From the NCBI GenBank assembly GCA_021827995.1, contig JAKATK010000014.1:10888-34887 (forward strand): 24,000 nucleotides of DNA, read 5' to 3'. The position numbers and the translations under genes are program-made. Position 1 is the first letter of the stretch; every line of letters starts with the position of its first letter. Of the stretch, positions 10,635-21,444 are shown piece by piece. The stretch is from Candidatus Micrarchaeota archaeon (GTDB lineage: Archaea > Micrarchaeota > Micrarchaeia > Micrarchaeales > Micrarchaeaceae). The notes beneath the pieces were generated by a model, which saw only the letters and a list, made by a program, of their open reading frames with translations, had not been told where the DNA came from and searched no databases.

Positions 10635-11969
10635 TTGAAGTCTTTTTCAGAGATGTCATTAAAGCCAGAGCTAGCAGAGGCCATAGGCAGGGTCGGGTTC
10701 ACCGCAGCAACTGAGGTGCAGGAGCGTTCCATACCCTCGATACTCCTGGGCAGGGACGTGATAGTCAGGGCCAAGACCGGTACCGGCAAGACCGCGGCGT
10801 TCATAATCCCTATAATGCAGCGCATAACGCACTCGGGTTCAGTGAGCGCAATAATCATAGTGCCCACCAGGGAGCTGGCGCTGCAGGTGGCCGAGTTCTC
10901 CCGCAAGCTGGGCGAGCACATGCGCCTACGCACCACCACGGTCTACGGCGGCGCGTCGATAAACGTGCAGACGAGCGAGCTGGAGCGCGGCACCGACATA
11001 GTCGTCGGCACGCCAGGCAGGATAATAGACCTACTGGACCGCGGCGTACTGAGGCTCGATTCCGTGAAGTTCGTGGTGCTGGACGAGGCGGACCGCATGC
11101 TCGACATGGGCTTCATAGAGGACATAGACTACATACTCTACAAGACGCCGATGAAGAGGCAGACGATGCTCTTCTCGGCCACGATGCCGCAGGAGATAGT
11201 CAAGATAGCAAAGCGACACATGGACCAGGGCGTCGAGACTATACTGGTGGGCGAGGACGACGAGCTCGTGGTCTCGACGATCTCGCACAGCTGCGCATTC
11301 GCCAACGGCAACGCCAAGTTCGCCTCGCTGCTCTGGTACATCGACAAGTTCAAGCCCAAGAAGTGCATAGTATTCTCGCGCACGCAGCGCTGGGCCGAGC
11401 TGATACACGACGTTCTAAGGAACAACGGCTACAACGCCGTGCTGCTGCACGGCGGCCTGACGCAAGCGGTGCGGGAGAGGTCCCTGAGCCACTTCAGGCA
11501 TGCCGGCGAGATACTCGTTGCCACTAACATAGCATCGAGGGGTCTCGATATAAACGACGTCACCGACATAGTTAACTTCGATACGCCTGAGACCTCTTAC
11601 GACTACATCCACAGGGTGGGCAGGTCCGCTAGGATGGGCAAGGAGGGCAGGGCGTTCACGATCTTCCGCTTCGACGAAAAGTGGATCAAGGATGACATAG
11701 AGTACGGCGCTAACATAAAGTTCGAGGAGCTCAGGCCAGAGCTCAGCAAGTACCCGAACGTAAGGCCACCAGAGCGCGCCAGGGAGCCGTTCGGTGGTCG
11801 CGGCGGTCCTGGCGGCCAGAGATGGCACAGGGGCAACCAGCAGTACGGCCGCGGGGAGCATCGCGATTACCGTGGGGGAAGGTTCCACCGCGGCGGCCAG
11901 CAGCACGGTCATCAGGGGCAGCACGGTCACCAGCAGTACCACAGACCGCAGGCGCAGGCCCAGGCCTAG
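10635..11969 (+). CDS. DEAD-box ATP-dependent RNA helicase with RGG/QH-rich C-terminal tail
   Basis: Q-motif (F...GFTAATEVQ), AKTGTGKT, PTRELA, TPGR, DEAD, SAT, ARGLD, HRVGRSAR. The TTG 10635 start retains the conserved Q-motif Phe; ATG 10653 is the alternative. Confidence 0.9.
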   Translation: MKSFSEMSLKPELAEAIGRVGFTAATEVQERSIPSILLGRDVIVRAKTGTGKTAAFIIPIMQRITHSGSVSAIIIVPTRELALQVAEFSRKLGEHMRLRTTTVYGGASINVQTSELERGTDIVVGTPGRIIDLLDRGVLRLDSVKFVVLDEADRMLDMGFIEDIDYILYKTPMKRQTMLFSATMPQEIVKIAKRHMDQGVETILVGEDDELVVSTISHSCAFANGNAKFASLLWYIDKFKPKKCIVFSRTQRWAELIHDVLRNNGYNAVLLHGGLTQAVRERSLSHFRHAGEILVATNIASRGLDINDVTDIVNFDTPETSYDYIHRVGRSARMGKEGRAFTIFRFDEKWIKDDIEYGANIKFEELRPELSKYPNVRPPERAREPFGGRGGPGGQRWHRGNQQYGRGEHRDYRGGRFHRGGQQHGHQGQHGHQQYHRPQAQAQA

Positions 11970-11971
11970 AG

Positions 11972-13930
11972 TCAGAGGCCCTTCTCGATCGCGTCCATAA
12001 TCTCGTGGGCTAGGAGCTCCTTCGTGCCGTCTACAAGCTTGGACGAGCCATCACGCATCAGTATGTGGGCGCGGTGCCTCGCCTCGGTGACCTGTGAGGA
12101 GTCGTTCAGCACCATGAGGCCGGCGCCGAGCTCCTTCATCCTGTGCCGGCCTGCTTCTATCATCCCCTTGTCGCTCATCATGTACTCCAGCTTGAAGCCG
12201 GCTATGAACAACTTCGGGAACTCTCTCGCTACCCTCTCTATGATCTTCGGAGTTGGCGTGAGCGACAGGTTCCACTTCCCGGTTGACTTTAGCTTGGTAT
12301 GCAGCTTGCTCTCAGGTTCGAAGTCCAGGACCGCGGCCGCGAATATTGCGGCATCGTATGGGCCAGACCTTAACTCCGAGAGGGTAGCGTCCAGCATCTC
12401 CTCAACCGTATTTGCCGCTATAGATCCCACGTACATCGGAACTGGCACCCTGGCTGGCCCAGTTATTACCTTGATCTCGCAGCCGCGCCTGAAGGCCTCC
12501 CTCGCTATGCTCGCGCCAAGCGCCCCGCTCGAGCTGTTCGATATGTACCTGACAGCGTCAAGGTAGTACCTGGTGGGCCCGGAGAGCAGCAGGATCCTCC
12601 TGCCTCTCAGCCTGCCTACGGCCAACTTCCTGTGCACGCTGTCCGAAACCTCGCGTATGCCAGGTATCTTGGCGATGCCCTCATCGATCCTTGGCGCTAT
12701 CACCATCGCGCCGCGCTTCCGCAGCTCCGCCAGGCTCTCCTTAAGCAGCGGATTGTCGTACAGCTTCATGTTCATGGCCGGCACTACTATCAGCTTGTCA
12801 TTGGGGTTGGCCGCGCACAGCGTCGTCACTGCGGTGTCCGCTATTCCAAGCGCAATCTTCCGTATAGTGTTCAGCGTCGCAGGGTAAACCAGTATTGCGT
12901 CGTAATCGGTGAGGTGCTCAGACATGCCGGTCAGGTGCGTGACCACGCCCCTGCCGGTCGCCCACTCCATGAGCGCTGGGCTGACGCCGAACTTCACAGC
13001 GCCATCGGTCATGAAGCACTCTACGTCGCAGCCGCTCCTACGCAGTTCCCTGGCGAGCCTGGGCGCCATTACGCTCGCGACGCTACCTGACATGCACAAC
13101 GCTACGCGCCTGCCAGCCAGCCAGTCGTTCTTCAGCGTCAGTTCGCCACCGGTCGGGTGCTTAGCGAACAGGCTACTGTAGTCCCCGAAGCCGTTAGTGC
13201 ATGGATTGCCTTCGGTGTAGAGAAGCCTGGACCTGCCAGCATCATCAGCGAGCGCGATTATTGTAGACGAGGTCATCTTCCAGTCGCCTGATCCGTGGAA
13301 GCATATCGAGGCGTGGCCCTTCTGTGATACGTGGTCCGCAGCGATAACCCCGATGCGTTTCAGCGCGTCGTCCAGCGACGCGCCTGGGATGCCAGCCGCG
13401 AGTCTCATGGCCCTCTCACTCCTGAGCGCAGAGCCCTTCCTGATCGCAGCGGTGCCAGCCTTGTAGACCGCGCCCTTCCTATGGACGAAGCTGGTTATGA
13501 CGTGGACACCGGCCTCAAGCTCTGTCTTCTGTACACGGCCTTCCTCGTAAAGCACGTGGAAAGCGGAGCGCTTGTCTGCGACCACGAAGTTGCCGCGCTT
13601 ATAGCCCATAGTGACCTCCTTCACAAGATAGTCGACAGCTGTCTTGGCGTCGTCGAACATGTTGAGCAGGTCGAGCATGAGAAGGCCGCGGCTGCGCCTG
13701 AAGTCGGTATCGATACCGGTGTGCTGGTCAGTGACTGCTACGAACAGGCCGCTCTTGTTAGCACCGATCCAGGTGCCGCCGCTCCTCACGTCAATAGGCG
13801 CATAAATCTCGCGCGCGCCCTTTATCCTGCGCGGCGGGTACTCCAGCGTGTCCGAACGCTCGTACCTGTTGTGCATAGCGACTATCTGGAAGCCGTCGAT
13901 TACCCGGTAGAGCAGCACCAGAGTGCACAT
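11972..13930 (-). CDS. coaBC: Tri-domain fusion: N-terminal TANGO2/NRDE-family domain + phosphopantothenoylcysteine decarboxylase (CoaC) + phosphopantothenate-cysteine ligase (CoaB)
   Basis: Uninterrupted 652-aa ORF. Residues 1 to about 256 (nt 13163-13930) show MC start, AMHNRYE (cf. NRDE), GGTWIG, GLFVAVTD, RSRGLL, RGNFVVAD and TSSTIIALAD, collinear with human TANGO2. Residues about 272-435 (nt 12626-13117) are a flavoprotein fold with VALCMSGSVAS, SEHL and VVPAMN. Residues about 441-652 (nt 11975-12610) carry GPTRYYLDAVRYISNSSSG, AAAVLDF and KLHTKLKS, the CoaB signatures. Confidence 0.85.
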   Translation of the reverse strand: MCTLVLLYRVIDGFQIVAMHNRYERSDTLEYPPRRIKGAREIYAPIDVRSGGTWIGANKSGLFVAVTDQHTGIDTDFRRSRGLLMLDLLNMFDDAKTAVDYLVKEVTMGYKRGNFVVADKRSAFHVLYEEGRVQKTELEAGVHVITSFVHRKGAVYKAGTAAIRKGSALRSERAMRLAAGIPGASLDDALKRIGVIAADHVSQKGHASICFHGSGDWKMTSSTIIALADDAGRSRLLYTEGNPCTNGFGDYSSLFAKHPTGGELTLKNDWLAGRRVALCMSGSVASVMAPRLARELRRSGCDVECFMTDGAVKFGVSPALMEWATGRGVVTHLTGMSEHLTDYDAILVYPATLNTIRKIALGIADTAVTTLCAANPNDKLIVVPAMNMKLYDNPLLKESLAELRKRGAMVIAPRIDEGIAKIPGIREVSDSVHRKLAVGRLRGRRILLLSGPTRYYLDAVRYISNSSSGALGASIAREAFRRGCEIKVITGPARVPVPMYVGSIAANTVEEMLDATLSELRSGPYDAAIFAAAVLDFEPESKLHTKLKSTGKWNLSLTPTPKIIERVAREFPKLFIAGFKLEYMMSDKGMIEAGRHRMKELGAGLMVLNDSSQVTEARHRAHILMRDGSSKLVDGTKELLAHEIMDAIEKGL

Positions 13931-13960
13931 GCACGCACCTACATTCGCTATGGTTTGCTG

Positions 13961-15889
13961 CTAGACAAAATTTAAGCTTGCGCCAGGCATGGAACCGTTG
14001 GGCGGGTATGCTCTAGTGCGTATCCAGTAGAACGTGACACTGCCACCGGAGCTTATGAATAAGCAGAGATACGATGGACCGATGTTAGGTATGTCATTTG
14101 AAGACGTAAGCTGGTTGCCGTAGTTATAATAACCATTGAGGTCTGTCTGGGACTGCCATGAGAGCGTGACTGTTATCGGGTAGCTGTAGGAACTGCCGGA
14201 TACCTGATTCGTGTTGCCGTTTGATATGGTTGGAAACTCTACCCACTGGTGCAGGCCGGAGGTAACGCCGTCAACCCATCCCCACCAACCGGAACAGCAG
14301 CCAGATGGCGTTTGCGTGTTCCAACCCAGCAGCTCGTCATGGCCATCGTATTGCGCCGTACCAGTATAGAAGTACGCGTCTGCCATCAGACCGGCGGGAG
14401 AGAGCCGGGTGGCGTAGTAGAAGAATATAGAGCCGCCGTTGCCAGTCAACGTTAAGCCGTTGTTGATGCTCTCGCCACCGCCATTGGCGCTGTAAGTCCA
14501 ACCTGACGGTACGGAAGAACCAGAGAAATCGGTGTAGACATTGAACACGTTTGCGCCGTTGTCGTACTGCGCGTATCTGGGACTTAGCTGCGGCGCCTCG
14601 CCTGCGATGGGCACGTCGAACTCCGTGCTTAACGGCTCGAACACCATGTATATCGTGTTTCCGGGCGCCGTCTGGGTTTCTCCGTTCGGCAGCTTTACCC
14701 AGAAGATCGCCTGCGACGACGATTGGTTGCTACACGCGGTCTCGGGGCAGCCCTCGAGCCACGAGGCCAGCGGCCCAGACGGGACGCCGTTCGTGAGCGA
14801 GGAGTAGAACCTTATGTTGCCCAGGTCGCCGCTCTCATAAGATGAATACGAAGAGGGGTTGAAAGTGATTTCCTGCTGGAACGTGCCTGATATCGTGCTG
14901 CCAGGATTGAGCGTTATCTGCACGTAAGGCGATGTCACTGTGAGCGTATACACGGCATTGCTCGTGGCACCGGTGAGCGCATTGGTGCCTGTCACCGTGA
15001 TCTGGTAACTGCCCGGCTGCGCCGACGCGGTGGTGTTTATCGATAGGATGCTGTTGCACGTAGGATCAGGCGTGCACGACAACGGGCTGAACGCCTTCGT
15101 TATAGTGGGCGGCGCGGTATCAGATAGCGTCACTACGTTGGCGTTGTTGGATATTGGTGTAGTAATCGTCACCAACGCGTTGGTCGACTGGCCTGCCGCG
15201 ATCGTGTTGCTGGTAGGGCTCACCGATACGGTGAAGCTGAACTGCCGCGCCGGTGGCGGTGCTGGCGGAGGCGAGGAAGATCCGGAACCTCCGCCGAAAT
15301 AGCCGCCGAACGATGCGCTGTTGGTACCCGCCTCCTTCGCCGTTATCGTAGCAACCTTCGAGTATGCCGTCGGGGCCGAGCACGGGCTCAGGCAGTAGCC
15401 CAGCCAGACGTAACCCGCGAACGGCGTCCCTATCGGAGCGTTCGCAGGTATCTGGCCGTACGCGAACTTGCTGGCGTTGAAGTCTGCGCCGACCGTTTGG
15501 CCCGGAAGTAGGTTGCCTATGAAGAGCGCCTTTGAAAGGTCGTTGGCCGTGAAGTTCTGCGGTACGCCCATACTGTTTAGCGGTTCGCCATCCGCGGCCA
15601 TGAACATAAAGGAATCGAAGTATTCCCTGCCCGTCGTCTGGCCGAATGTTATGCCTATACCGTTGGCGGTGTATACCAGGCTCTTGCAGACGAAGCCTGC
15701 TTGGGCGATGCAGGCCTGCGGTGCCAGGTTCGAGCCGTTGAAGACGCCGAGTTCGAAGAGCGCAGCTAGCACTACTGCTATGATCAGTATGGCCCATCCG
15801 TAGGTCATCAAGTACTCCATGGCTGACTGTGCTTTACTCCCGATCTTTTTGGCGATGGTACGCTGCGACTGCATGTGAATACTAACCAT
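13961..15889 (-). CDS. Large secreted/surface protein with archaeal class III (prepilin-type) signal peptide, beta-sandwich, DUF2341-like and lectin-like domains
   Basis: N-terminus ...KKIGSKA/QSAMEYLMTYGWAILIIAVVLAALF carries the Q-x-x-x-E-Y-L plus hydrophobic helix motif. It is followed by the Pro-rich linker GSGSSSPPPAPPPA, an S/T/N-rich beta-sandwich (GSYQITVTGT...YTLTVT), a DUF2341-like segment (GNIRFYSS...ASWLEGC...AIFWVKLPNG...IYMVF) and a W/G/Y-rich C-terminal lectin-like region. ATG 15874 (MQSQR...) is an alternative, possibly leaderless, start behind the TATA-like TTTAAATT at about 15897-15904. Confidence 0.75.
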   Translation of the reverse strand: MVSIHMQSQRTIAKKIGSKAQSAMEYLMTYGWAILIIAVVLAALFELGVFNGSNLAPQACIAQAGFVCKSLVYTANGIGITFGQTTGREYFDSFMFMAADGEPLNSMGVPQNFTANDLSKALFIGNLLPGQTVGADFNASKFAYGQIPANAPIGTPFAGYVWLGYCLSPCSAPTAYSKVATITAKEAGTNSASFGGYFGGGSGSSSPPPAPPPARQFSFTVSVSPTSNTIAAGQSTNALVTITTPISNNANVVTLSDTAPPTITKAFSPLSCTPDPTCNSILSINTTASAQPGSYQITVTGTNALTGATSNAVYTLTVTSPYVQITLNPGSTISGTFQQEITFNPSSYSSYESGDLGNIRFYSSLTNGVPSGPLASWLEGCPETACSNQSSSQAIFWVKLPNGETQTAPGNTIYMVFEPLSTEFDVPIAGEAPQLSPRYAQYDNGANVFNVYTDFSGSSVPSGWTYSANGGGESINNGLTLTGNGGSIFFYYATRLSPAGLMADAYFYTGTAQYDGHDELLGWNTQTPSGCCSGWWGWVDGVTSGLHQWVEFPTISNGNTNQVSGSSYSYPITVTLSWQSQTDLNGYYNYGNQLTSSNDIPNIGPSYLCLFISSGGSVTFYWIRTRAYPPNGSMPGASLNFV

Positions 15890-18077: not shown

Positions 18078-18157
18078 AAACAAGGCCGCGTGCTGTCGTT
18101 TAGAATTTTCGCTTCGCGCTGCGGCGAAACCACGCTACGACGTCAGATCTCTAAACT

Positions 18158-18167
18158 GATAAATATC
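18158..18167 (+). promoter_or_regulatory. Candidate TATA box (GATAAATATC) for the DapA-like/UbiD/UbiA operon
   Basis: Only A/T-rich box in the 132-nt gap after the EamA gene, about 45 nt upstream of ATG 18210. Confidence 0.3.
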
Positions 18168-18209
18168 TTGCGTGGCATAAGATATCACTGCATCTATCTG
18201 GGTCTTTTC

Positions 18210-19196
18210 ATGGAGTATACAAAGAGCGAAGCCAAAGCTTGGGCCCGCGAAAAGCTCGTGGGGCAGTGGACCACAATGGTCACACCGTTCACTAAGGACG
18301 ACCGGCTGGACGAGGCCGGACTAAAGCGTAACGTAGAGCATGTGCTCTCGCTCGGCACCAAGGGTCTCGGCTTCTCGTGGAACATGGGCGAGTTCTGGAG
18401 CCTGACCCGCGAGGAGCGGCTAAGGCTCATGGACATCGTACCAGAACTGGTCAATGGCAGGGCGATGACAGCCTTCCAGGTTACGAGCACCTCGCTCAAC
18501 GAGGTGATCGAGCTCTCTGAAAGAGCCAGGCAGCGCGGGTTTGATTTCGTAATAGTCGCTGCACCGTTCATAATGACAAAGACAGAGGAGCAAGTCATTG
18601 ACTTCGTCAGGCGCGTCTCTGAGCGCACCGATATCGGCATAGCATTCTACAACTCCCCCCAGTTCGGCATAACAATTTCTGCAAAGGGTCTCTCGCGCAT
18701 TGCCGACATACCAAGCGTCATCGCGATAAAGGAGGCGAGCTTCAACACGCAGATATCGATAGACACGCACCTGCTGGCAGGAGGCAAGGCGGTAGTTAGC
18801 GTGCCTGACGAGGAGATATTCCTGTACGAGCAGTACTACGGCTTCCACCAGCAGGTCATGTTCGCCAACACCAGCGACTGGCGCTTTGACACGAAGAGCA
18901 GGCACGAGTACGTCAAGTTCATAGACGCAGCTACGACTGGCAACCAAGAGAAGGCACGTGATTTATACGAGAAGGTGAAGCCGATAAAGATGGTTTCTAG
19001 AAAATGGTGGTCGCAGACCGCGGCGAAGACTGGCGGCGCCCTGCCCGTGCAGATGGTGAAGTGCTGGGGCGAGCTGATGGGCATGGCAGGTGGTGCCGTG
19101 AGGCCGCCGGTGATACCGTTCTCAGAGGAAGACAGGGCCGCGCTCAAGGAAGACCTGGCAAGGCTCGGCCTCGTGGAACAATCGGTCATAGAATGA
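18210..19196 (+). CDS. DapA/NAL-family class I (Schiff-base) aldolase-type enzyme
   Basis: Family motifs MVTPF, SWNMGEFWSLTREER (GxxGE), FYNSP (catalytic Tyr) and IAIKEAS (Schiff-base Lys). ATG 18210 (MEYTKSE) is preferred; the track extension from 18090 is Arg/Cys/Ile-rich and covers the promoter region. Confidence 0.85.
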   Translation: MEYTKSEAKAWAREKLVGQWTTMVTPFTKDDRLDEAGLKRNVEHVLSLGTKGLGFSWNMGEFWSLTREERLRLMDIVPELVNGRAMTAFQVTSTSLNEVIELSERARQRGFDFVIVAAPFIMTKTEEQVIDFVRRVSERTDIGIAFYNSPQFGITISAKGLSRIADIPSVIAIKEASFNTQISIDTHLLAGGKAVVSVPDEEIFLYEQYYGFHQQVMFANTSDWRFDTKSRHEYVKFIDAATTGNQEKARDLYEKVKPIKMVSRKWWSQTAAKTGGALPVQMVKCWGELMGMAGGAVRPPVIPFSEEDRAALKEDLARLGLVEQSVIE

Positions 19197-20602
19197 TAGC
19201 TGACCTTAGGGGATACCTGGGCTATTTGTCTTCTAAGAGCAGGCTCGTTGAGGTGTCTGAAAGGGTCAGCACCGACCTGGAGATATCGGCCATGACAAGC
19301 ATAGCCGGCAAGGAATCCCCCCACCACAGCAAATCGCTACTATTCAAGAACGTTGAAGGCTACGATATGCCCGTGGCTACGAACCTGTTCGGTTCGGTCG
19401 ACACAATCAGCGAACTCTTCAGCGATGCGCGCATACCAGAATTGATCACCGGTATAATGCACCCGAAGGGAGGAGCGGGCAACATGCTGAGAGGCGCGAA
19501 GGTGCTCATAGACTCGATGCCGAAGGTAGCGGGCTTCAGCAGCAGGAACTATGACAGGTTAAGCAGCCTGGACGAGCTGCCTATAATAAAGGCATGGCCG
19601 AAAGATGCCGGCAGGTTCATAACCTTGCCGTTGGTGATAACCAAGGGCCAGGACGGCTCTACGAACGTCGGCATTTACCGCATGCAGGTCTTCGATGACA
19701 TGACCACAGGCATGCACTGGCAGGCGCAGAAGGGCGGCGCGATACATGCCCACGATGCGCGGCAGGCAGGCAAGACCATGCCAGTGTCTGTTACGATAGG
19801 CACGGACCCGTTCAACATGGTATCGGCTGCCACGCCGCTGCCGCAGGGCATAAACGAGTTCGCCTTCGCAGGAATGGCCAGGCGCTCCCGCACGCAGCTC
19901 GTCAAGAACGGTGACTACCCACCTGTGCCAGCGAACTCAGAGATAATCCTGTACGGCGAGGTCGACCCGTCGGAGAAGCGCGTCGAGGGGCCGTTCGGCG
20001 ACCACACCGGCTATTACTCTATACCGGAGCCTGCAAACGTGTTCCACATAAAGGAGATATACGCCAAGAAGAATGCCGTCTACGCCGCCAGCGTAGTCGG
20101 GCACCCGTGGCACGAGGACGCGTCGATAGGCCTGTTCATGATGGACTACCTAAAGCCAATGGTGAGCATGGTCAACGACAGCATAACCGACATCTACCTG
20201 CCGCCAGAGGGCCTGTTCACGCACGTCTGCTTCATAAAGGTCAACAAGAGGTTCCCGGGAGAGGCCAGGAAGGCGATGTTCACAGTGCTCGGTCTTGGCC
20301 AGCTCTCGTTCGTCAAGATGGTCGTCGCATTCGACGATGACATAGACATAAGGGATTACGGCAGCGTGCTGTGGGCCATGGCCAGCAGGGTCGAGCCTGG
20401 GCGTGACATACAGATAATAAATGGCGCGCCGACGGACACGCTCGATCACACGGCCAATATGCCCGCATATGGCTCGAAGGTGCTAATAGACGCAACCAAG
20501 AAGAGCGCCGGCGAGGGCTACGCCAGGGAGTGGCCCGACACCATAGCTATGACCAAGGAAGTGCTGGAATCTGCGGAGAGAAAATGGCGAAAGTCAAGAT
20601 AG
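19193..20602 (+). CDS. UbiD-family (prFMN-dependent) decarboxylase
   Basis: MIADLRGYLGYL..., ITLPLVITK, GIYRMQV and EGPFGDHTGYYS signatures. ATG 19193 overlaps the upstream TGA (ATGA). Confidence 0.9.
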   Translation: MIADLRGYLGYLSSKSRLVEVSERVSTDLEISAMTSIAGKESPHHSKSLLFKNVEGYDMPVATNLFGSVDTISELFSDARIPELITGIMHPKGGAGNMLRGAKVLIDSMPKVAGFSSRNYDRLSSLDELPIIKAWPKDAGRFITLPLVITKGQDGSTNVGIYRMQVFDDMTTGMHWQAQKGGAIHAHDARQAGKTMPVSVTIGTDPFNMVSAATPLPQGINEFAFAGMARRSRTQLVKNGDYPPVPANSEIILYGEVDPSEKRVEGPFGDHTGYYSIPEPANVFHIKEIYAKKNAVYAASVVGHPWHEDASIGLFMMDYLKPMVSMVNDSITDIYLPPEGLFTHVCFIKVNKRFPGEARKAMFTVLGLGQLSFVKMVVAFDDDIDIRDYGSVLWAMASRVEPGRDIQIINGAPTDTLDHTANMPAYGSKVLIDATKKSAGEGYAREWPDTIAMTKEVLESAERKWRKSR

Positions 20603-21444
20603 CCGCTGTGCTGGCCGGTCTGTTCAGGCCCTGGCTTATCGCGTACAACCTGTCGTTCGTCTACATAGGCGTGCTCTTCGCGCATGGCATAACGCTCTAC
20701 GCCTTCGCGCTCGTCACCATCGCATTCATGGCCGCACGGCTGTCCGCGCTGCTGATGAACAGGTACGTGGACCGCGAACTGGACCTGAGGAACCCGAAGA
20801 AGCGGCACAGCGATCCAAGCCTCGCCGTACCAAGGAACACGCTACTGTACGCGTTCGCGCTTTTATCCGCGCTGTTCGTTTTCTGCGCGTACCTTCTCAA
20901 CACGCTGGCGCTGCTCCTGTCGCCAATCGTTATTGCGCTCTTCATCATAGACCCGATGCTCAAAACCAGGACTAGCAGCAGGCACTTCAGCGTTGGCGCG
21001 ATAGAGAGCATATCGCCTCTAGCCGGTTACATAGGGATAACAGGCACGTTCCCGGCGGCGCTGCCGCTCTACCTCCTTGTCGTCGGCATGATCCTTGTCG
21101 GCGGTGGCTTCGACGCGCTCTACGCCGTAGTCCACGCAGACTTCGACAGGAGCAACGGCATCAAGACCTATGCAGTCAAGTATGGTGTCGACAAGGCGCT
21201 TCGCATATCGATGGTAAGCCACGTGATCGCGATCGCGTTCATTATACTGTTCGCCTTGTCGAGCGGTTCCTTCGCCATCCTGATCGGTTCTATCGGCGCC
21301 TCAGCGATACTGCTATCGGAGCATTCTGGCATCAAGGGTGCCAACGATGCGGATTTCATGAAGCGGTTCAATATCTACAACCCGGCATTGGCCGTCGTAA
21401 TACTGGCTTCTGTGTTCGCATGGTGGTTCATGACGCTCGCATGA
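20584..21444 (+). CDS. UbiA-family aromatic prenyltransferase (UbiD-associated subfamily)
   Basis: About 8-9 TM helices. First Asp-rich motif ARLSALLMNRYVDRELDLRNP (NxxxDxxxD), second in FDALYAVVHADFDRSNG. ATG 20584 lies 19 nt inside the UbiD gene. Confidence 0.85.
   Translation: MAKVKIAAVLAGLFRPWLIAYNLSFVYIGVLFAHGITLYAFALVTIAFMAARLSALLMNRYVDRELDLRNPKKRHSDPSLAVPRNTLLYAFALLSALFVFCAYLLNTLALLLSPIVIALFIIDPMLKTRTSSRHFSVGAIESISPLAGYIGITGTFPAALPLYLLVVGMILVGGGFDALYAVVHADFDRSNGIKTYAVKYGVDKALRISMVSHVIAIAFIILFALSSGSFAILIGSIGASAILLSEHSGIKGANDADFMKRFNIYNPALAVVILASVFAWWFMTLA

Follow-up and report, generated by a model that had tools for sequence, protein, structure and literature searches.

A 652-aa protein that joins a TANGO2-family module to a complete CoaBC was found in the window, i.e., the whole 24,000-nt stretch of DNA analysed here (positions 10,888 to 34,887 of contig JAKATK010000014.1, GCA_021827995.1), which came from a metagenome-assembled genome of a Candidatus Micrarchaeota archaeon (22 contigs; hereafter G000). 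The protein was shown to consist of a separately folding TANGO2-type module tethered by a flexible linker of ~17 residues to a complete CoaC–CoaB, the decarboxylase and ligase of coenzyme A (CoA) biosynthesis, and the fusion was confirmed as genuine. TANGO2–CoaBC is a new architecture made from two known families; no description of it was found in full-text literature searches, TANGO2 papers included. Our preferred reading, held tentatively, is that the module, a cysteine-type N-terminal nucleophile (Ntn) protein, acts on a pantetheine-bearing metabolite, the skeleton of which then enters CoaB–CoaC.

The preliminary description of this DNA had read from the letters a single open reading frame (ORF) of 652 aa with collinear motifs of both families, and the ORF listing and translation bore this out: the frame was open without interruption from an ATG start, none of the 10 codons between that start and the preceding stop offered another start (open frame 662 aa), and the translation contained AMHNRYE (residues 18–24), GGTWIG (51–56), GLFVAVTD (61–68), RSRGLL (79–84), GNFVVAD (113–119), TSSTIIALAD (220–229), PAMN (384–387), the GPTRYYLDAVRYISNSSSG block, and AAAVLDF. 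Pfam recognized TANGO2 at residues 1–147 (41.4 bits, cutoff 22.6, E 2.4e-10), Flavoprotein at 275–415, and DFP at 441–614 of the 652-aa protein. The NCBIfam coaBC equivalog TIGR00521 scored 268.7 bits against a cutoff of 219.7 and aligned residues 272–648 with profile positions 2–391 of 392, and with these matches the assignment of residues ~272–652 to a complete CoaC plus CoaB was upheld. The full-length AlphaFold2 (AF2) model contained confident domains and had a predicted template-modelling score (pTM) of 0.59, a value that permits no inference on docking of the TANGO2 module onto CoaBC; the predicted local distance difference test score (pLDDT) fell below 50 at linker residues 258–262.

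Profile and structure modelling identified the N-terminal domain as a true TANGO2-family module with a predicted alpha-beta-beta-alpha Ntn fold. A phmmer search of the whole library returned 1,526 relatives of this domain, and a 104-sequence alignment of such relatives (A2, residues 1–262) was used for the profile and for AF2. The single-sequence phmmer search against the PDB gave no match, and TANGO2 was reached only by the family profile, which matched human TANGO2 (crystal structures 8sv7 and 9bwa) with an E-value of 1.6e-25. The AF2 model of the domain (pLDDT 96, pTM 0.93) had as its top PDB folds in Foldseek TANGO2 (9bwa and 8sv7), CV2077 (3gvz), 2x1d, bile-salt hydrolases, and C69 dipeptidases. 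These results, together with the Pfam score above cutoff, substantiated the claimed TANGO2/NRDE identity of residues 1–256. A weak NCBIfam C45_proenzyme match (E ~1e-3) was also obtained for the window protein, and the sole return of a related-locus search of genome contigs was a canonical bacterial TANGO2 from Paenimyroides. Cys directly followed Met in the window protein (MCTL), in 104/104 rows of A2, and in 2826/2925 carriers across genera; it occupied column 2 in 17 of the 21 fused sequences, and the remaining four were start-truncated gene calls. The module was N-terminal in every fused protein, with Met-Cys wherever the start was properly called, so the N-terminal placement with a free Cys2 emphasized in the preliminary description was kept throughout.

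The module had the same fold as human TANGO2 (8sv7 and 9bwa) and CV2077 (3gvz) at Foldseek E ~1e-13, and it shared with the family Met-Cys, the N-R of NRDE, GGTW, R-S/G-R-G, the S-S-T strand, and a size of ~255 residues; it differed from the family in being covalently joined to CoaBC, in aligning with the Pfam model over residues 1–147 only, and in having N-R-Y-(E/A/T) with a clade-invariant Tyr, an Asp within T-D-Q-H at the position equivalent to human Asn75, and, in the genus of G000, a Ser at that equivalent to Asn157. The module also resembled Cys Ntn hydrolases and acyltransferases (2x1d of peptidase family C45, bile-salt hydrolases, and C69; Foldseek E 1.6e-11 to 1e-8), among which acyl-CoA:isopenicillin N acyltransferase (2x1d) takes acyl-CoA as substrate; unlike them, it had no propeptide (Cys right after Met1), it lacked an Asp at the canonical partner position, where an acidic residue (human Asp27, bile-salt hydrolase Asp20, AC Asp162) positions the alpha-amino group of the nucleophile, and identity was 10–18%. 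Four further residues of the domain (window 13166–13930), H200, C210, H212, and C244, were nearly invariant (94–99 of 104 prokaryotic relatives), and this His/Cys/His/Cys set could be a metal or ligand site; on inspection of the profile alignment, human TANGO2 had Cys in the Cys210 column and apparently Arg in the His212 column.

The DNA of the window was found in mine-drainage and tailings metagenomes of several studies. The domain junction (nt ~13115–13165) was crossed with zero indels by metagenome contigs from three different studies, the check being made on assembled contigs and not on raw reads. The same three Pfam domains recurred in ~21 protein clusters from other metagenomes (40–98% identity), 10 of which were found by the N-domain query and more by the CoaBC-part query; these clusters came from many samples and lay on contigs of up to 292 kb with unrelated neighbourhoods. 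A chimera or frameshift at the junction, the artefact that the preliminary description had considered, was thus excluded as far as contigs show: given independent bridging and this recurrence, the probability that an assembly chimera or a concealed frameshift or stop had produced the fusion is negligible.

A maximum-likelihood tree was built from the CoaBC parts (72 rows), with support from the Shimodaira–Hasegawa-like approximate likelihood ratio test (SH-aLRT). It placed 22 TANGO2-linked CoaBCs plus two derivatives in one clade (SH-aLRT 100), which shows a single origin of the fusion, followed by loss, decay, and splits. Among the fused sequences, mean pairwise identity was 0.48 for TANGO2, 0.37 for the linker, 0.63 for CoaC, and 0.56 for CoaB; between two 92%-identical fused copies (L027 and L032/L033), dN/dS was 0.186 for TANGO2 and 0.162 for CoaBC, values indicative of purifying selection on both halves. 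In locus L031, TANGO2 and CoaBC were encoded by two overlapping ORFs that differed in frame, the break falling within the linker. L027 (2357–2368) and L032 (2181–2192; also L033) were each interrupted by one in-frame stop, at neighbouring codons: in one copy the Cys305 codon TGT had become TGA, and in the other the Tyr306 codon TAT had become TAA. Both stops fell directly before the invariant Met307 inside CoaC and left ORFs of 302–303 and 346 aa. Such copies may represent young pseudogenes, an enzyme tolerated in two pieces, or cases of readthrough or reinitiation. A split at the domain boundary was rejected for the three loci since the stops fell within CoaC, on the Cys305 codon or the one beside it; selenocysteine, considered for the TGA at a Cys codon, was rejected since in the sister copy it was the adjacent Tyr codon that had become a stop, TAA.

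Sister to the TANGO2-fused CoaBCs was a clade of plain CoaBCs plus three Aldolase_II–CoaBC fusions. The latter (P0213, P0216, and P0227; Aldolase_II PF00596 plus CoaC plus CoaB, 582–612 aa) formed a small clade with support 92; they likewise carried an N-terminal domain on an archaeal-type CoaBC, but the added domain was unrelated to TANGO2 and its origin independent.

The pocket of the module was compared with that of human TANGO2, for which a crystal-structure paper proposed that Cys2, Asn25, Asp27, Asn157, and Lys166 are catalytic and placed Arg26 and Asn75 close by (PMC13044924). The fused clade kept Cys2, Asn21, and Arg22 of this pocket. The N-R-D-E motif, which human TANGO2 needs to bind acyl-CoA, was not intact: the window protein read N21-R22-Y23-E24, and the fourth position varied among the fused sequences, while Asp was the majority residue at the third position of the motif (88/104 in A2 and 1290/2151 carriers across genera). 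The Asn75 equivalent was Asp68 in the fused clade, within T-D-Q-H, and the two positions covaried in A2 (81 sequences combined D23 with N68, and 9 combined Y23 with D68), which suggests that the carboxylate was relocated to Asp68 in the fused clade; the swap looks compensatory rather than degenerative. The Asn157 equivalent was Asn in 18 fused sequences. Invariant in the 21 fused sequences were C2, N21, R22, Y23, Q69, S80-R81-G82, N114, D119, D199-H200, C210, H212, S221-S222, and C244, and nearly invariant were T67, D68, H70, and T146. Judged by these alignments, the pocket of the fused clade appears remodelled, not decayed.

The CoaBC half looks functional. H339, N387, D458, R461, N465, D536, and K546 were present and invariant or nearly so in the clade, and the CoaB nucleotide and cysteine motifs, PAMN387, and the archaeal EG.AK clamp were conserved. 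It shared the active-site His, PxMN, the CoaB motifs, and the conserved Lys with Mycobacterium smegmatis CoaBC (6tgv, described as a CoaC-core dodecamer; PMC7794376) and Escherichia coli CoaB (1u7u), and the order CoaC then CoaB with bifunctional CoaBC/Dfp (TIGR00521); unlike these, it had a 270-residue N-terminal extension bearing another domain and occurred in an order otherwise without CoaBC. Cys305 and Y-P-A-T were specific to the fused clade, which had PAMN against the PAMH/PTMH of neighbouring plain archaeal CoaBCs. The absent CoaC clamp Cys was rejected as a clade peculiarity: EG.AK was common to plain archaeal CoaBCs, and Mycobacterium was also without the Cys.

The genome G000 was that of a 1.26-Mb archaeon, 88% complete, with relatives of 0.6–1.1 Mb, and the N-domain was confined to its genus g1 among 401 genomes of the phylum. 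Within the genus, G003 had the full gene and G001 only a decayed remnant; the latter (L004:1440–1662) comprised residues 1–37 including MC...NRY, a stop, and then a fragment like residues ~87–106, and it adjoined a malic enzyme gene. A weak N-domain match in G020 (L005, E 9e-6) did not survive tblastn. The closest relatives of the N-domain were in Thermoproteota (Bathyarchaeia and Nitrososphaeria; 40–59% of self-score), and one fused lineage was labelled 'Thermoprotei archaeon' at NCBI. In the class of the carriers G403 and G637, 34/251 genomes had a close N-domain relative, nearly all stand-alone and of ~260 aa. From this carrier distribution we infer that the fusion arose once where stand-alone TANGO2 of the N-R-Y/T-D-Q-H type was common (Thermoproteota-type archaea) and was then horizontally transferred into genus g1; the CoaBC tree does not fix the direction of transfer.

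The fused gene was the only DFP match in G000, and DFP was found in G000 and G003 only among 61 sampled genomes of the order, and in none of the other 59. G000 also had a bacterial-type CoaD/PPAT (TIGR01510 above cutoff, 167 bits) adjoining NreA; this gene was patchy in the order (9/61 genomes), which suggests salvage of 4'-phosphopantetheine in several of these small-genome archaea. PPS, PanC, PanK-III, and pantoate kinase were not found in the 88%-complete G000, the four GHMP kinases of which were ThrB, a heptose-kinase-like protein, MvK, and MDD, none a pantoate kinase; the search for a Fumble-type PanK was uninformative, the control genomes being silent too. No dephospho-CoA kinase, neither CoaE nor the archaeal DUF359 DPCK, was found in G000 or G003. 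As far as gene content can tell, G000 has no recognizable de novo route to 4'-phosphopantothenate. A missing PPS was rejected as a hallmark of fusion carriers: PPS occurred in 71/251 genomes of the class, 6/34 carriers versus 65/217 non-carriers. In G003, the fused gene was divergent from CoaD and an acyl-CoA dehydrogenase gene followed 17 nt after it; in L027, an acyl-CoA dehydrogenase gene and two thiolase genes lay downstream of it.

Pfam TANGO2 was carried by 5,037/36,145 genera. Within the neighbourhood of relatives of the window N-domain, DFP occurred within 1 kb of 12/300, versus 0 at random places, and was concentrated in the closest bands (<3/234, 3/57, and 3/6 by rising likeness). 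The CoA link is local to the closest relatives and not general in the TANGO2 family. The stand-alone N-R-Y-type TANGO2 loci had a conserved neighbourhood of 2-hydroxyacid dehydrogenase, CBS protein, TANGO2, OCD/mu-crystallin, GPN-type ATPase, and inositol-phosphate synthase-like genes. The decayed fused locus of G404 shared the OCD and ATPase neighbours (loci compared: L034–L053; L028/L029), which hints that the fusion arose in that neighbourhood.

The literature background given in the preliminary description (vitamin B5 rescue, acyl-CoA binding, a disputed haem role, and a proposed Cys2 Ntn hydrolase) proved correct. A Cys2 Ntn hydrolase was proposed for TANGO2 from the crystal structure (PMC13044924), and docking of palmitoyl-CoA on human TANGO2 brought Cys2 up to the amide carbonyl of the pantothenate moiety (PMC12359130). 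In our preferred reading, removal of Met1 would expose Cys2 in the conserved, remodelled pocket, and the pocket would recognize a molecule with a pantetheine arm, namely 4'-phosphopantetheine or CoA in acylated, conjugated, or damaged form, and cleave it at the thioester or at the pantothenoyl–cysteamine amide. Amide cleavage would yield 4'-phosphopantothenate, which the tethered CoaB takes as its substrate; from it and new cysteine, CoaB and CoaC would make 4'-phosphopantetheine again, to be passed on by the bacterial-type CoaD. The whole protein would work as a shunt for salvage or repair in an organism without a recognizable de novo route to 4'-phosphopantothenate. In favour of this reading speak the recurrence and single origin of the fusion, the selection on both halves, the conserved pocket, the CoA-related gene context, the binding of acyl-CoA by human TANGO2, and the acyl-CoA-using Ntn enzyme 2x1d among the top fold matches. 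A narrower, attractive version is improbable as it stands: the TANGO2-like module as a (phospho)pantetheine-arm amidase that would cut the pantothenoyl–cysteamine amide of acylated, oxidized, or otherwise modified 4'-phosphopantetheine or CoA, feeding CoaB–CoaC in a cysteamine-exchange repair/salvage cycle.

Several observations weigh against the preferred reading. We know of no member of the TANGO2 family for which an activity has been demonstrated. The position of human Asp27, the proposed catalytic Asp, was Tyr23, invariant in all 21 fused sequences, and the equivalent of Asn157, the oxyanion Asn, was Ser147 in the window protein, the G003 protein P0003, and P0211; with these two replacements, clade-wide and in the window and G003, respectively, catalysis may be altered or lost. 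No confident inter-domain packing was seen in the full-length model at its pTM of 0.59. The module appears dispensable for CoaBC in some lineages: P0201 was a truly unfused CoaBC with a linker-like N-terminus, nested beside the window protein, and in G404 TANGO2 fragments preceded an intact CoaBC, with neighbouring genes fragmented too, so that assembly errors are possible there. The Aldolase_II fusion in the sister clade implies that a domain added in front of an archaeal CoaBC does not have to belong to the pathway. As for CoA supply, G001 was without DFP elsewhere yet kept the bacterial-type CoaD, CoaD alone would suffice if intact 4'-phosphopantetheine were scavenged, and the pathway genes not found may be merely unassembled in a genome of this completeness. 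Across the family, DFP lay within 5 kb of 0/300 sampled TANGO2 carriers in every likeness band, and no CoA genes were found around 20 stand-alone close relatives, the conserved flanking genes of which were on the opposite strand. Of the two kinds of recurrence named in the preliminary description, that of the fusion itself (~21 clusters) stood and that of CoA adjacency across the wider TANGO2 family did not. Its broader argument, from the fusion to an ancestral NRDE/TANGO2 activity on a CoA metabolite, was not supported in view of the 0/300, the CoA-free stand-alone neighbourhoods, and the derived pocket; a pocket so remodelled makes extrapolation to ancestral or human TANGO2 weak.

Two other explanations of the fusion were considered, and the same pocket changes bear on one of them. 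The module might be a non-catalytic sensor that binds CoA or acyl-CoA and feedback-controls the tethered CoaB/CoaC, giving a control point in a pathway without pantothenate kinase. Purified human TANGO2 binds acyl-CoA via the NRDE pocket and is not known to have enzymatic activity (PMC11867700), a behaviour that fits a sensor, as do the clade-wide change of the proposed catalytic Asp to Tyr, the Ser at the Asn157 equivalent in the genus, and the loss of the module from lineages that keep CoaBC, which would suit an accessory regulator. CoA and acyl-CoAs inhibit the mycobacterial CoaBC, which makes control at this step physiologically meaningful, but in that enzyme, which has no sensor domain, the acyl-CoAs seem to bind in the active site of CoaB (PMC7794376). 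The strict retention of Cys2 and of the N-terminal placement, the many invariant polar pocket residues, the compensatory look of the D23/N68 to Y23/D68 swap, and the lack of any confidently predicted docking onto CoaBC all speak against a sensor, which we regard as rather unlikely.

A joining by chance, tolerated and then inherited or transferred, with the module engaged in the release of cysteine or another amide without relation to pantetheine, in lipid amide hydrolysis, or in haem handling, would account for the single origin, the absence of a CoA association elsewhere in the TANGO2 family, the unrelated Aldolase_II at the same place in the sister CoaBC clade, and a TANGO2 part that was lost, decayed, or split more than once; bacterial homologues have also been reported as haem-trafficking proteins (PMC10470608). 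Such an unrelated or loosely related fusion is opposed by its persistence to ~40–45% identity with dN/dS of ~0.19 in the TANGO2 part, by its retention after transfer into a genome of 1.2 Mb undergoing strong reduction, by the CoaD and acyl-CoA genes adjoining it in G003 and L027, and by the acyl-CoA binding shown in the family by independent experiment (PMC11867700); we consider it unlikely.

The coordinates of the fused gene, its parts, and related features are collected in Table 1. A 642-aa ORF (window 13961–15889, minus strand) lay 30 nt upstream of the fusion; it had no Pfam or NCBIfam match, resembled DUF2341-containing proteins of Microcaldota/Parvarchaeota by language-model features, and was rich in Ser, Thr, and Gly, and it may be a surface protein, while a peptidase S9 like the L010 neighbour was rejected for want of similarity. 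On the other side, one X5 contig was without 6 nt at window 11947, just downstream of the fusion stop and within the 3'-terminal part of the DEAD-box helicase ORF that converges on it (10635–11969), representing strain variation. Genes for a DHDPS-family protein, a UbiD-family decarboxylase, and a UbiA prenyltransferase formed a run at window 18090–21444 (plus strand), a module of prenylated-aromatic or quinone type, which is unusual in an archaeon with 1.26 Mb; the DHDPS-family and UbiD-family ORF calls overlapped by ~190 nt, and a start may be miscalled. The CoaC domain was the only HFCD/UbiX-like flavoprotein seen in the window. A tRNA-splicing endonuclease gene was also present in the window.

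Table 1. Coordinates of the TANGO2–CoaBC gene, its domains, and related features (window positions unless another sequence is named)
Feature	Coordinates	Strand	Remarks
Whole TANGO2–CoaBC ORF (P0001)	11972..13930	-	Stop codon included; 652 aa: TANGO2-like domain, linker, CoaC, CoaB
TANGO2/NRDE-family Ntn-fold domain (predicted), residues 1–255	13166..13930	-	PF05742 (DUF833), profile, AF2, Foldseek, column analysis; Cys2, N21-R22-Y23 (NRDE variant), GGTW, T67-D68-Q69-H70, S80-R81-G82, T146-S147, H200/C210/H212/C244
Inter-domain linker, residues ~256–272	13115..13165	-	Lowest conservation, low model confidence, bridged by independent contigs
CoaC (phosphopantothenoylcysteine decarboxylase, HFCD flavoprotein), residues ~273–440	12611..13114	-	PF02441, TIGR00521, 6tgv alignment; GSVA flavin mononucleotide (FMN) motif, E338-H339, PAMN387, archaeal EG.AK clamp
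CoaB (phosphopantothenate-cysteine ligase), residues ~441–652	11975..12610	-	PF04127 E 1.1e-39; 5int, 1u7u, and 6tgv alignments; GPTR..D458..R461..N465-SSG, AAAVLDF, K546
GGTG, Shine-Dalgarno-like by sequence	13936..13939	-	5 nt upstream of the ATG-TGC (Met-Cys) start
Junction-spanning contig, X3 record 5	13063-14011		
Junction-spanning contig, X5 record 10	12284-13246		
Junction-spanning contig, X7 record 23	13046-13246		
Bacterial-type CoaD	G000:C13:9027-9521 (L017:7028-7522); L022:7308-7799		

Proposals for TANGO2 function include acyl-CoA binding, a Cys-Ntn hydrolase, and haem trafficking, and the question is clinically relevant since pantothenate, a CoA precursor, is given to patients. 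The CoA association is confined to one derived archaeal clade and so cannot be projected simply onto the whole TANGO2 family; if the amidase version were true, pantetheine-arm processing of (acyl-)CoA would be the core TANGO2 activity and would explain the benefit of vitamin B5 in human deficiency. The finding is a useful lead on TANGO2 function and supplies small, soluble prokaryotic proteins for direct tests of hypotheses on substrate, binding, and regulation: the full-length fusion, P0201 as a naturally unfused CoaBC, and P0038 as a stand-alone relative. It bears on CoA supply in genome-reduced, host-dependent archaea, where a transferred TANGO2–CoaBC and a bacterial-type CoaD occur with no recognizable source of 4'-phosphopantothenate. 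As a natural, selected fusion, it provides evolutionary evidence, from an independent side, that TANGO2 works in CoA/pantetheine metabolism in at least one of its branches.

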